Notes: generated from the sequence alone by a model not told the origin. A stretch of DNA of 59,583 nucleotides from Leptospiraceae bacterium (GCA_024233875.1 JACKPB010000009.1:149191-208773); one strand, 5' to 3'. Numbered from the stretch's first letter, positions 30,565 through 37,177 are shown. Program-made: numbers and translations.

Positions 30565-30966
30565 CCTATTCCCATCCTCCTTAAGATTCGAAATAATTAT
30601 TTTTCTTCTGATAAGAAAAGTTATGAAATTTCTTCTTTCAAAGTAAAAAAAATGACCTAAAAAAGAAAAGCAATTACTCTAAACTCGGGTTCAAATTTTA
30701 GTAAATGAAAAATGAATCTAAGTACAAGACAAAAAAAACAAAAATATCGGTGAATTGAATCTTAAAAAATATTACAGATAATCTATAATTTTTTAGAATC
30801 ATTAGATTTTCCTAAATTAATTCCTATAGAATTCAGAGAGATTTTAGAGGAAAATATCAGTTATATTTTATTTACCTGTAAATAAGTCCGTAAACAAGTA
30901 TTGTAATAGGTAAATTTCTAGTGAACAAAGTGTTAATAGGACATAATTAAGATTTATTGTCTCTTA

Positions 30967-30993
30967 GACATAATACTGATTACGAATTATGTC
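30967..30993. promoter_or_regulatory. Inverted repeat GACATAAT-N11-ATTATGTC, with an extra direct half-site GACATAAT at 30940-30947, about 145 bp upstream of dnaN
   Basis: Read directly from the sequence. Candidate operator in the dnaN leader or oriC-candidate region. Confidence 0.35.
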
Positions 30994-31136
30994 GTTTATT
31001 GAAAAAGTTATTTTCAAAAAATATGTCGCATATTTTCTATAAAAAAATGTAGTTTCTTGGGGTTAGTTACTTATACACACCGCTAATTATTATTACTATA
31101 TAAGAAAGTTAAATTAAATATATAAGGAGTTTTGCT

Positions 31137-32258
31137 ATGAAGTTCCATGTCAAAACTGGAGATTTTCAAAAAGCTATTTCTGCAGTAGAAGGGGTAATCA
31201 CTGTTAGAGAAATAAAATCTGTCCTCTCTAATTTGAAACTGGAGGCTGAGGAAAACAGAGTTTCTATTTCAGCTACAGATTTGGAAATCTCTATTAAAAC
31301 ATCTATAGCATCAAATACTCATGTTGTTGGAAGTGGATCCATTCCCGCTAAGCAGTTGAGCAATATTTTGAAAGCAATTAATTTCAGTGAAACATCATTA
31401 GAAAATGTGAATGAAGGTGAAAATTCAGCTAAGACTATAATCACCGACGCTGAAAACAAGGTTGATTTCAAAATGATGATCAATGGAATCGGAGGAGAAG
31501 AAATCAAAACGATCTCTACGATAGATGATTCAAGAACATCAGGATTTCAGTGTAATACACTCTCCAGTATGATTAAGAAAACATCTTTTTCTGTTGCTCT
31601 AGAAGACACCAGGTTTGTTTTTAATGGACTGTATGTCAAAAGCTTTGAAAACAAAATAGTTGTAGTTGGAACAGATGGTAGAAGATTAGCTAGAGTAGAA
31701 AGAGAATTTACTAATAACTTACCGTTTCAAAATGGTGTGATTATTCCTCACAAGGCTATAAAAGAGATTTTAAAAATAATAGATCATAATGAATCAGGAA
31801 GAATAGGTTTAATTGATAACCAAATCTATATTAAAATTAATGAGATTGAGTTATTATGTAAATTGATAGATGGAAATTATCCTGACTACGAAGCTGTAAT
31901 CCCAAAAGAAACTCATAATAATATCAAGATGCCAAAAGATAAATTCTTGGTAGCTCTACGTCAGGCTCTGATAGCTGCAGAAGAACCATCCAGACAATTA
32001 AGATTAAGATTCAATGATAATAACTTACATATCAATGCGTCAACTCCGGGGACTACTGAGGCAAACATCAATATTCCTGTGGATTATTCAGGTGAAGATA
32101 CTACTATTGCTTTCAAAGGTGATTTTTTATTAGATATAGTAAAATCTATAGAAGATCAAGAAATCATAATTGAATTCAATAATTCTAATGCACCGGTTGT
32201 CTTTAAAGATCCATCAGATCCACAATATATTTCAGTTGTTATGCCAATGAAATTATGA
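31137..32258 (+). CDS. dnaN: DNA polymerase III beta sliding clamp
   Basis: 373 aa with three-domain clamp architecture. The N-terminus MKFHVKTGDFQKAIS is typical of DnaN. It is followed directly by recF. Confidence 0.9.
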   Translation: MKFHVKTGDFQKAISAVEGVITVREIKSVLSNLKLEAEENRVSISATDLEISIKTSIASNTHVVGSGSIPAKQLSNILKAINFSETSLENVNEGENSAKTIITDAENKVDFKMMINGIGGEEIKTISTIDDSRTSGFQCNTLSSMIKKTSFSVALEDTRFVFNGLYVKSFENKIVVVGTDGRRLARVEREFTNNLPFQNGVIIPHKAIKEILKIIDHNESGRIGLIDNQIYIKINEIELLCKLIDGNYPDYEAVIPKETHNNIKMPKDKFLVALRQALIAAEEPSRQLRLRFNDNNLHINASTPGTTEANINIPVDYSGEDTTIAFKGDFLLDIVKSIEDQEIIIEFNNSNAPVVFKDPSDPQYISVVMPMKL

Positions 32259-34367: not shown

Positions 34368-34682
34368 ATTCTCTTAAATATATATACTTTTCATATTTTG
34401 CAATGTAGCCATTTTATAAATAATTCTTATGTGAATACGCAAATACTTTTGAAAGTGACTGTAAGCTGAAAAACAAATAAAATAAAAATTTGAGTGAATA
34501 AAAACTTCTACTAATTTTCAAAAAGATCTTCATTTGCAGTAGTGAATCAGTAATAAAAAGAATAAATTTTGTAAATTGAAAAATTAAATTTTATCTGAGA
34601 ACTAATAATTATCAACTCGATAAAATAGACTCTTCAATATACTATAAAAATTCATTGCAATCTGAATGAAAGATTTCAAAAA

Positions 34683-35240
34683 ATGAATATGAAATATTTT
34701 ATACTTATACCACTCCTCTGGATTATGACATTGATTTCTTGTTCGAAAAAGTACATGGTTTCTGAAGTGAAAAATGGAAAAAATATCAATACTTCAGAGT
34801 TGGTAGATCCTGATTTTTTTTTCCAGAAAAGAATGGAAAATAGGATAAAAAAAATCCTGGGACGAATCTGGGAAATCATATATGAAGATGGCCAATATGT
34901 GTACTTTGGATACACAAAGGGAGATTCACATGAATCTATGTATATGGAGACTCTCTATAGGGTAGAGAAATCCAGCCTTGAAAAGTTTTTCCCGGGATAC
35001 AAATGGATAACCGGAATAGAACTAAATCGAGCAGTTCATCAATCAGTTACTGAAAAATTAAATTACAATTCCACTTTGATTCAAGATTATAAAAAGAACT
35101 GGAAGATTAAGGATGGAGAAATTCAGGTTGATTTGATTTGGATTTATTCTATGGATGGAGGATCAGAAAACCAAAAGAAATATTTCTTAAGATTTTCTGC
35201 AAGTACTTTGGACTTGATTGAAAAGAAAGTACTTCCCTGA
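34683..35240 (+). CDS. Putative lipoprotein, hypothetical
   Basis: Signal peptide plus lipobox LISC-SKK. 185 aa. Confidence 0.45.
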   Translation: MNMKYFILIPLLWIMTLISCSKKYMVSEVKNGKNINTSELVDPDFFFQKRMENRIKKILGRIWEIIYEDGQYVYFGYTKGDSHESMYMETLYRVEKSSLEKFFPGYKWITGIELNRAVHQSVTEKLNYNSTLIQDYKKNWKIKDGEIQVDLIWIYSMDGGSENQKKYFLRFSASTLDLIEKKVLP

Positions 35241-35263
35241 ATCTAAACTGCCAAAACCCGAAT

Positions 35264-37177
35264 CTAAAGATCCAGGTTCATCACTTTAGTGGCATTTTCC
35301 TCGATGAACCTTCTTCTTGGAGCTACTTCATCTCCCATGAGGATATTGAAAGTTTCTTCAGCTTCTACAAAATCATCCATTCGAACCTGTAGTATCACAC
35401 GATTTGATGGATTCATAGTAGTTTCCCAAAGTTGATCCGGATTCATCTCACCGAGACCTTTGTATCTTTGAAGCATGTATTTGGAGTCTTTGGTAAGCTT
35501 GGATACTAAAAGATCTTTTTCTTTGTCAGAGTAAGCATAGGTAGCTTCTTTTCCATGTTTCAAAAGATAGAGCGGTGGTTGAGCTATGTAGAGGTAACCT
35601 TTCTCTATGATCTGACGCATATGACGGAAGAAGAATGTGAGGAGCAAGGTTCTAATGTGAGAACCATCGATATCGGCATCCGTCATGATGATGATTTTGT
35701 GATACCTTAACTTTGCAAGATTGAACTCATCCTCTCCAATACCAGTTCCTATAGCAGAAATTAGAGTTCGAATTTCTTCATTAGATAAGATCTTATCCAG
35801 TCGAGCTTTCTCTACGTTGAGGATCTTACCTTTCAATGGTAGAATCGCTTGTGTATTTCTATCCCGACCCTGCTTGGCGGATCCACCTGCAGAATCACCC
35901 TCAACCAGGTACAGTTCTGAATTTGTTGGGTCTTTTTCTGAACAGTCAGCTAGTTTTCCGGGTAGTCCTCCACCTTCCAGAACAGTTTTTCTTCTTGTAA
36001 GATCTCTTGCTTTTCTGGCGGCCTCTCTTGCTTTTGCTGCAAGAATACATTTTTCGAGAATCTTTTTGACTACAGATGGATTTTCTTCGAAAAAGTCTGC
36101 AAGACCTTCTCCAACGATGGTTTGCATTTGTCCTTTGACTTCAGCATTTACCAATTTCTCTTTGGTTTGAGAATTGAATTGAGGTTGGGGTACTTTGATA
36201 GAGATAACGCTGGTCAATCCTTCTTTGACGTCATCACCACTCAATCCATTTGGGTGTTTTTTGGAAAGTGCGTTGTCTTTTTTTAAGTAATCATTCAAAG
36301 TTCTGGTTAGAGCAGTTCGAAATCCTTCCAGATGGGTCCCACCCAGGGTATTATTGATAGCATTAGTAAAACAAAATATATTTTCTGTGTAAGTATCTGC
36401 ATATTGAAGAGCGATCTCGGCTATCAAACTGTCTTTCGTTTTTTCAAAATGTATGACTTCAGGATGAATTGGATGTTTGTTTTTATTCAGGAGTTCTACA
36501 AAGGAGACAATTCCCCCGGTATAGCAGAATTCATCTTCATGAACTTCAGCTTTTCTTAGATCCTGAACTTTTAGGGTTAGACCTTTGTTGAGGAAAGCCA
36601 TTTCACGAAATCGTGATGATAAGATATCATATTGAAATTCAGTGGTTGTAAATATACTTGCATCCGGCTTGAATCGAACTGTAGTACCGGTCATTGAGGC
36701 AGGACCGATCACTTCAACAGGTTTTACCGGGATACCCTTAGTGTATTTCTGATAAAAAACCTGATTGTCCTGTCTAACTTCTACTTCTAACCATTCGGAG
36801 AGAGCATTGACAACACTGACTCCAACTCCATGAAGTCCTCCGGAAACTTTATAGGCATCATTTTCAAACTTACCCCCGGCGTGGAGGATGGTGAGAACTA
36901 CTTCAATGGTGGAAACATTCTTATCAGGATGAATACCTGTGGGAATACCTCTACCATTATCAGAAATCTCTATAATATTGTCAGGTAGAACTTTAATGAG
37001 AATATGGGAACACTGCCCTGCCATAGCCTCATCGACAGAATTGTCCACTACTTCATAAACCATCTTATGAAGTCCGGATTCATCCTGAGTTCCAATATAC
37101 ATACCGGGTCGTTTCCGAACTGCTTCCAACCCTTCTAAGATCTTGATTTTTTCTGCGCCGTAAGATGATGTAGTCAT
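35264..37177 (-). CDS. gyrB: DNA gyrase subunit B (type IIA topoisomerase ATPase subunit)
   Basis: GHKL ATPase N-terminus, a Toprim domain, [19 protein letters not shown] and the C-terminal [17 protein letters not shown], which is GyrB-like. 637 aa. No gyrA is adjacent. Confidence 0.8.

Follow-up and report, generated by a model that had tools for sequence, protein, structure and literature searches.

We report the analysis of a 59,583-nucleotide stretch of DNA from a Leptospiraceae bacterium (GCA_024233875.1, JACKPB010000009.1:149191-208773), referred to below as the window, in which the replication genes dnaN, recF and dciA stand without dnaA beside them and in which the AT-rich spacer upstream of dnaN is a likely chromosomal replication origin. 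Genes were assigned with Pfam and NCBIfam profiles, the NCBIfam bit scores being judged against the curated equivalog cutoffs, and all positions are counted from the first letter of the window. The left neighbour of the spacer is pgk (phosphoglycerate kinase; 29296-30564, - strand; PF00162, E = 3.8e-152), which reads away from the spacer and occupies the place that dnaA holds in Leptospira. The spacer between pgk and dnaN (30565-31136; 572 bp, 24% GC) is followed on the + strand by dnaN (31137-32258; TIGR00663, 262 bits against a cutoff of 138), recF (32255-33364; TIGR00611, 325 bits against a cutoff of 172) and dciA (DciA/DUF721; 33351-33788). Beyond these lie ruvC (33831-34367, - strand), a lipoprotein gene of 185 amino acids that we call ORF185 (34683-35240, + strand; its start, MNMKYFILIPLLWIMTLISC, is a signal peptide with a lipobox) and gyrB (35264-37177, - strand; TIGR01059, 981 bits against a cutoff of 882, both parE models remaining below cutoff). 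The genes dnaN, recF and gyrB are full length and above their equivalog cutoffs, and DciA and RuvC are above their Pfam cutoffs.

A preliminary description of this DNA had remarked on the missing dnaA before dnaN-recF-DUF721, the 572-bp AT-rich spacer and the divergent pgk, and on the antisense ruvC, the lipoprotein gene and an inverted gyrB without gyrA; our analysis bears out all of these points. No DnaA or GyrA was found among the 30 open reading frames (ORFs) of the window scanned against Pfam, which included all 11 of at least 400 amino acids, and no ORF in the window has sufficient length to be gyrA. Likewise, tblastn searches of the 59.6-kb window with eight Leptospiraceae DnaA proteins and one GyrA gave no match at E < 0.01.

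Gene order was compared across the family by tblastn over 46 loci (designated L007, L011 and so on), together with called genes. All Leptospira species loci that reach far enough have dnaA-dnaN and, in those with more sequence to the right, recF-dciA-gyrB-gyrA after it, in agreement with the canonical order from which the preliminary description set out, and two loci from metagenome-assembled genomes (MAGs), L011 and L023, also have the canonical dnaA-dnaN. As in the window, dnaA is missing before dnaN-recF-dciA in about 12 distinct non-Leptospira Leptospiraceae MAG lineages, and in these neither gyrB nor gyrA follows the block; we refer to such loci as uncoupled. Their flanks vary by lineage and include pgk, OmpA, a chemoreceptor gene and others, while dnaN-recF-dciA accompanies the conserved part of the spacer in every lineage examined. 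Loci L016-L018 resemble the window in having pgk (-) upstream and ruvC (-) after dciA; they have in addition an EamA transporter gene before the spacer.

The closest DnaN matches, from entries named 'MAG: Leptospiraceae bacterium', are 63-69% identical to the DnaN of the window, those of named Leptospira species 53-56%, and no GTDB species representative exceeds 69%; a GTDB scan with the single DnaN query returned no close relative, and a second, alignment-based scan worked. A neighbour-joining tree of DnaN recovers a non-Leptospira Leptospiraceae clade with 100% bootstrap and groups the window with L016-L018 at 96%. In this tree the canonical loci L011 and L023 nest among uncoupled lineages, L011 pairing with uncoupled L021 at 76% bootstrap, so that the break between dnaA and the origin probably occurred more than once within the Leptospiraceae, a conclusion which we hold tentatively, as the deep nodes of this single-gene tree are unsettled.

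Two side observations concern these relatives. Locus L016 (CAMCZP010000089.1) is labelled 'Leptospira interrogans serovar Manilae', a label that looks wrong: the locus is uncoupled in gene order, and its DnaN, 65% identical to that of the window, falls within the uncultured non-Leptospira clade. Furthermore, loci L007 and L008 (11253-21024), when set against L102 and L009, have nearly identical DnaN and differing flanks. In L007 an M23 peptidase gene and two ORFs split recF from dciA, and the right flank carries an island of PIN/MazE toxin-antitoxin, Fic and N6/N4 methyltransferase genes; in this group the origin-proximal region seems to be highly plastic.

The last ~260 bp before the dnaN start can be aligned across 12 uncoupled loci, the window included, and eight canonical loci, with 37 columns invariant in the 20 sequences, and neither the order of the aligned blocks nor their distance from dnaN differs from that in the Leptospira dnaA-dnaN spacer. 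Judged by this alignment, the spacer is homologous to that of Leptospira and is probably a direct descendant of the dnaA-dnaN intergenic origin. The left part of the spacer (30565-30867) is AT-rich, lineage-specific and unalignable with relatives, and presumably holds the pgk promoter. The conserved core (30868-31083, + strand), as defined by the family alignment, has at its left edge the pair TTATTTACC/TGTAAATAA (30868-30885), a near-perfect palindrome in which two box-like sites lie head to head. It continues with the block TGTTAATAG-GACATAAT (30931-30947), the block TTATTGTCTCTTA (30954-30966), GACATAAT (30967-30974), ATTATGTC (30986-30993), the block AAAAAGTTATTTTCAAAA (31002-31019) and AATATGTC, a GACATATT-type site (31020-31027). 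The inverted repeat GACATAATT/AATTATGTC (30940-30948 and 30985-30993) reported earlier is present, and GACATAAT proves to be part of a family-wide motif. Towards dnaN, the tandem box-like 9-mers TTAGTTACT and TTATACACA (31063-31079, with TTATACACA at 31071-31079), which read TTATCTACT and TTATTTACA in most relatives, are followed by a G+C cluster, CCGC (31080-31083), which is GGTAC or GGCC in relatives. Between this cluster and the dnaN ribosome-binding site, AAGGAG (31124-31129), lies an AT-rich candidate DNA-unwinding element (31084-31125, + strand); the 40-mer at 31086-31125 is the third least stable of the ~59,500 in the window, at -35.3 kcal/mol against a mean of -48.1 +/- 3.7.

This layout resembles that of the basal unwinding system of Bacillus subtilis at incC, in which tandem DnaA boxes, a short GC-rich spacer, DnaA-trios and an AT-rich region lie upstream of dnaN (PMC8287927, PMC6669920), and which is defined by three or more DnaA-trios (3'-NAN-5') no further than 16 bp from a DnaA box that has up to two mismatches (PMC8287927). 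The window has, like B. subtilis, two tandem 9-mers towards dnaN, a 4- to 5-bp G+C cluster, an AT-rich stretch and the ribosome-binding site, and TTATACACA is followed by CCGCTAA and then by TTA TTA TTA CTA, that is, by four NTN triplets on the box strand (p = 0.19 against shuffles). Unlike in B. subtilis, however, the boxes of the window are one to three positions off the DnaA-box consensus TTATCCACA, the trio periodicity is non-significant in most of the sequences, and there is no box cluster upstream of dnaA, nothing pointing to a bipartite origin. Membership of this system is accordingly best described as unproven, the likeness being one of sequence layout.

The motifs of the spacer are far denser than chance or context would give. 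By k-mer enrichment, ATTATGTC/GACATAAT was found in 29 copies, distributed over 12/12 uncoupled dnaN spacers, against 0.33 expected; ATAAGACA is present in 12/12 canonical dnaA-dnaN spacers, and TTATTTACA has 13 copies in the uncoupled spacers and 12 in the canonical ones. The motif GACATAWT (= WTATGTC), which is invariant in every Leptospiraceae origin spacer examined, has a density of 6.5/kb in uncoupled dnaN spacers and 4.7/kb in canonical dnaA-dnaN spacers against 0.09-0.19/kb in the rest of the loci, an enrichment of about 74-fold. For the relaxed box-like motif TTATNNACA the corresponding densities are 3.9/kb, 5.8/kb and 0.2/kb (about 19-fold), and the positions and orientations of the clustered sites are conserved among relatives. 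Four copies of GACATAWT lie within 88 bp of spacer sequence in the window, which holds 13 in total against 5.9 expected, a number reached in 0/100 shuffles. AT-richness alone cannot explain the clustering, since the equally AT-rich spacers upstream of dnaA are nearly free of TTATNNACA, with none in 10 canonical loci (500 bp) and 0 to 2 in uncoupled loci, corresponding to 0 to 1.4/kb. Outside the Leptospiraceae, GACATAWT is essentially absent upstream of dnaN, with one copy in ~16 kb.

GACATAWT keeps the TTAT half of the DnaA box and not the CACA half, and these sites could be divergent DnaA boxes, sites for other origin factors or promoter elements. In domain IV of the Leptospiraceae DnaA (L011 8394-9704; L093, L095, L098) the sequence GR(M/I/L)F(Q/N)(T/S)KH(T/S)TVI(N/S)A stands against GGRDHTTVLHA in Escherichia coli. 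These changes correspond to positions which we take to be the E. coli base-contacting residues D433 and H439, and the Leptospiraceae DnaA could, on this comparison, have an altered DnaA-box specificity. A bolder proposal, that GACATAWT marks the true sites of a specificity-changed DnaA or of an undescribed Leptospiraceae origin factor and, in addition, that the junction between dnaA and the origin has been broken repeatedly and independently, is one that we put forward only tentatively and consider rather doubtful.

A further copy of an origin motif was noted elsewhere in the window. At 54586-54598 (- strand), in the spacer 54340-54657, the reverse complement reads AATAAGACATAAT, the consensus core of the first origin block; the site lies between divergent genes, upstream of a 531-amino-acid ORF without a Pfam match, and within a 40-mer (54567-54606) that only one other in the window exceeds in instability. 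Whatever factor recognises the origin motif may have a second target here.

GC skew at third codon positions (GC3 skew) separates the effect of replication from that of the coding strand. To the left of the spacer it is -0.125 for + strand genes (n = 9), -0.044 for - strand genes (n = 23) and -0.066 for all genes, and to the right it is +0.101 (n = 14), +0.143 (n = 12) and +0.123, respectively; it thus changes from negative to positive on both gene strands, with z = 6.9 for the difference. When a step model was fitted with gene strand as a covariate, the optimum was flat, with the best breakpoints at 28.3-32.3 kb (t = 6.6 to 6.8). Flips of the same polarity are found at L016 (z = 4.5), L017 (z = 4.0) and L009 (z = 4.75), as well as at canonical control loci, among them L011 (z = 3.6) and L026 (z = 3.0). 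The uncoupled dnaA loci, by contrast, have one sign of skew on both sides, for example -0.15 and -0.11 at L095. This dnaA locus lies 73 kb "left" of dnaN on a shared contig, on which the dnaN locus changes from -0.09 to +0.01 (z = 2.1), and negative skew at L095 is what an origin at dnaN predicts. Box clusters are absent from the dnaA flanks in relatives, and those flanks whose skew was measured show no flip.

The homology of the spacer, its conserved motif clusters, the strand-independent GC3 flip and the occurrence of the same uncoupling in MAGs that have dnaA elsewhere make it likely that this uncultured Leptospiraceae bacterium has its chromosomal replication origin in the pgk-dnaN spacer, namely in the ~260 bp of its right-hand part (30868-31125). 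Homology, motifs, skew and the synteny of relatives therefore support the earlier suggestion that the lineage is rearranged and that its candidate oriC has become separated from dnaA.

Several observations weigh against this reading. The window shows no enrichment of strict DnaA boxes, counted as TTATCCACA with up to one mismatch: it has 16 against 18.7 +/- 4.4 expected. The spacer holds a single one-mismatch box, the TTATACACA to which the preliminary description had drawn attention; it is indeed one mismatch from TTATCCACA and is the homologue of a conserved box, but taken alone it is at chance level. The canonical Leptospira dnaA-dnaN spacers, with 0 or 1, are equally poor in such boxes, and a cluster of strict boxes is therefore lacking throughout the family and not only at this locus. 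Periodicity of DnaA-trios is not shown statistically, only L021, L024 and L028 being at p < 0.05. At the uncoupled loci L007, L015, L021 and L025 there is no skew flip within +/-10 kb, for which the low power of 21-kb loci, or island genes on one flank, may be responsible. The window organism's own dnaA was not found by sample matching. Finally, the conserved blocks could in part be promoter or regulatory elements of dnaN.

Taken to its full extent, the last point becomes the rival view that the conserved spacer is nothing but the promoter or regulatory region of dnaN-recF, acted on by DnaA or another regulator, and that replication starts elsewhere, for instance near the relocated dnaA. The conserved blocks do lie directly upstream of dnaN, several relatives are without a local skew flip at dnaN, and DnaA is known to regulate dnaN in other bacteria (PMC9879097). 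A regulatory role would also fit the single GACATAAT in + orientation that is found at a conserved, clade-specific distance (~118-405 bp) upstream of dnaA in 15/17 canonical loci (L023-L046). This view does not, however, account readily for a strand-independent GC3 flip at the spacer in the window, L016, L017 and L009, nor for uncoupled dnaA loci without a flip or box clusters. Moreover, an array of three to six copies of the motifs, pointing both ways and ending in an extremely AT-rich stretch, resembles an origin more than a promoter, and a sigma-70 promoter scan of the spacer gave 8 matches against 4.7 +/- 1.8 in shuffles, which is not above shuffles. We therefore regard a purely regulatory spacer as unlikely.

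It had also been suggested that we are looking at a second copy of the origin region, or at its decaying relic, with a working dnaA-dnaN-recF-gyrB-gyrA cluster elsewhere in the genome. Just 59.6 kb of the genome is visible, which leaves room for such a cluster, yet we give this explanation very little credence, because none of the genes is truncated and all score higher than the curated equivalog cutoffs, a DnaN search gave no closely related second copy in canonical context, the skew flip argues for an origin in use and, in relatives, the dnaA locus continues into unrelated genes and has no dnaN beside it.

These uncoupled dnaA loci were found by DnaA searches and examination of context. Where the upstream region is available, dnaA (+) is preceded by a conserved gene of 106 amino acids (-) and by a spacer of 400 to 500 bp with 18-21% GC, and the canonical locus L011 likewise has the 106-amino-acid gene (-), together with a DUF8198 gene, before its dnaA. 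DnaA and DnaN occur in the same MAGs in the NCBI pairs MBK8398799/MBK8398393, MBP7281264/MBP7280938, MDX1958555/MDX1957766 and MCP5493880/MCP5493332. Both members of the last pair, whose accessions are 548 apart, list a contig of 1,159,307 bp (JACKPA010000001.1), evidently the same one, and the JGI contig Ga0558119_00134 (466,689 bp) has dnaN at ~371 kb and, ~73 kb away on the same strand, dnaA at ~445 kb. The search for dnaA elsewhere that the preliminary description proposed has thus been successful for related MAGs and not for the window organism itself. One DnaA, P0128, shares 79% identity with the P0126 group and comes from sample ERZ27248705, to which two samples containing the window organism are siblings; it is a candidate only and cannot be linked to the window genome. 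Three further proteins, P0122, P0124 and P0129, were rejected as the DnaA of this organism, as they come from unrelated samples.

An outright loss of dnaA from the lineage, with DnaA-independent initiation, would explain why the gene is missing for this exact organism and why the window has no remnant of it. It is nevertheless hardly probable, given that an intact dnaA is present elsewhere in all of the related MAG lineages open to checking, as is seen in the accession pairs of four MAGs and in two contigs apparently with both genes, one of them with both positions read; the 79% identical DnaA of the sibling sample and the strong conservation that the box-like sites still have speak against a loss also. 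Lastly, a chimeric join that removed dnaA, the misassembly envisaged earlier on, has next to no probability: although metagenome assemblies can be chimeric at repeats, an identical DnaN is found on six contigs from six different samples (ENA, Logan), made with different assemblers, which are all collinear with the window to their ends, agree in gene order, base for base, across the pgk-dnaN junction or its flanks and in four cases cover at least pgk to ORF185, this junction is common to the sister species L016-L018, and the same order in at least four independent metagenome assemblies shows that it is not a misassembly.

The gyrB of the window is a genuine gyrB and is 80% identical to that of the canonical locus L011. 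It lies on the opposite strand, behind ruvC (-) and ORF185 (+) and with no gyrA, whereas in canonical loci the co-oriented gyrB-gyrA follow recF-dciA. Judging from gene order only, inversion of 33.8-37.2 kb (ruvC, ORF185 and gyrB) would restore the adjacency of dciA and gyrB (+), and the simplest history of gyrB would be one inversion together with the loss of linkage to gyrA. The GC3 skew of gyrB, +0.17 on the + strand of the window, fits the present replichore, so any inversion would not be recent. In the sister loci L017 and L018, no gyrB is found in the 3.5 to 4 kb that reach past ruvC. A gyrB unlinked from gyrA is ordinary across bacteria.

The surrounding genes include ilvE (28310-29230, - strand) to the left of pgk, and yebC and hom (from 37488, + strand) to the right of gyrB, all assigned from Pfam and NCBIfam. 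In a related entry, P0069, a 364-amino-acid 'DnaN, partial' on a 2485-bp contig from a TPA Leptospiraceae MAG, the N-terminal and central domains of DnaN are joined to a homoserine dehydrogenase domain; this is an assembly chimera or a gene-fusing deletion, hom being 6 kb downstream of dnaN in the window. Neither tRNA genes nor Rfam matches were found in the window. One segment of 2.2 kb (13878-16053) has no ORF longer than 71 amino acids, within an otherwise densely coding window; it is without tandem or inverted repeats and has no Rfam match at E <= 0.1. As it lies beside a gene of 106 amino acids, like that which precedes dnaA in relatives, it was considered as a decayed dnaA and ruled out: tblastn gave no DnaA remnant there, and the two 106-amino-acid proteins are unrelated.

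From these comparisons of sequence and gene order we infer the binding of DnaA, the site of unwinding and the order of rearrangements as follows. A rearrangement that broke the chromosome between the origin and the 3' end of dnaA would have moved dnaA away and kept the oriC-dnaN-recF-dciA module whole, and gyrB would later have parted from gyrA and been inverted with ruvC and the lipoprotein gene. DnaA made from its distant locus would bind the boxes of the TTATNNACA type, which occur in both orientations and include the tandem pair at 31063-31079, and possibly GACATAWT too, and would then open the AT-rich stretch at 31084-31125. DciA, encoded just downstream, would aid in loading the helicase, and forks would depart both ways.

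Among the spirochaetes, Borrelia burgdorferi has its origin in the dnaA-dnaN intergenic region, where DnaA binds it in vitro (PMC9879097), and the origin of Leptospira biflexa chromosome I lies beside dnaA, dnaN, recF and gyrAB (PMC2229662). On a Leptospira oriC or DnaA box, our library searches gave only general statements; none of the papers found delimits DnaA boxes or an unwinding element for a Leptospira origin, and none describes a dnaA-unlinked origin in the Leptospiraceae. The window shares with the canonical Leptospira cluster, dnaA-oriC-dnaN-recF-(dciA)-gyrB-gyrA, the homologous spacer before dnaN, the same dnaN-recF-dciA after it and the same polarity of skew; it differs from it in that pgk replaces dnaA, gyrB is inverted and 1.5 kb further off, and gyrA is lacking. 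In the cyanobacterium Synechococcus elongatus, oriC lies upstream of dnaN and dnaA is elsewhere, and the origin of Caulobacter is not next to dnaN. The oriC of E. coli is, similarly, no longer near dnaA (PMC6669920). The likely origin described here is like those of E. coli and the cyanobacteria in being apart from the initiator gene and, as in cyanobacteria, it remains beside dnaN; unlike in those unlinked origins, the uncoupling is young enough to be seen, and close relatives keep the ancestral linkage.

That dnaA and oriC can lie apart is well known from other phyla, and the concept is unchanged by the present work. What the dozen uncoupled lineages amount to is a natural deletion experiment, in which everything to the left of the ~260-bp block, dnaA included, has been swapped, while the block itself is nearly invariant and marks the skew flip. 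The comparison suggests a minimal cis-acting origin and narrows the candidate protein-binding motifs to a few. In these Leptospiraceae, origin finders anchored on dnaA, and pipelines that orient MAGs in the same manner, would misplace the origin.

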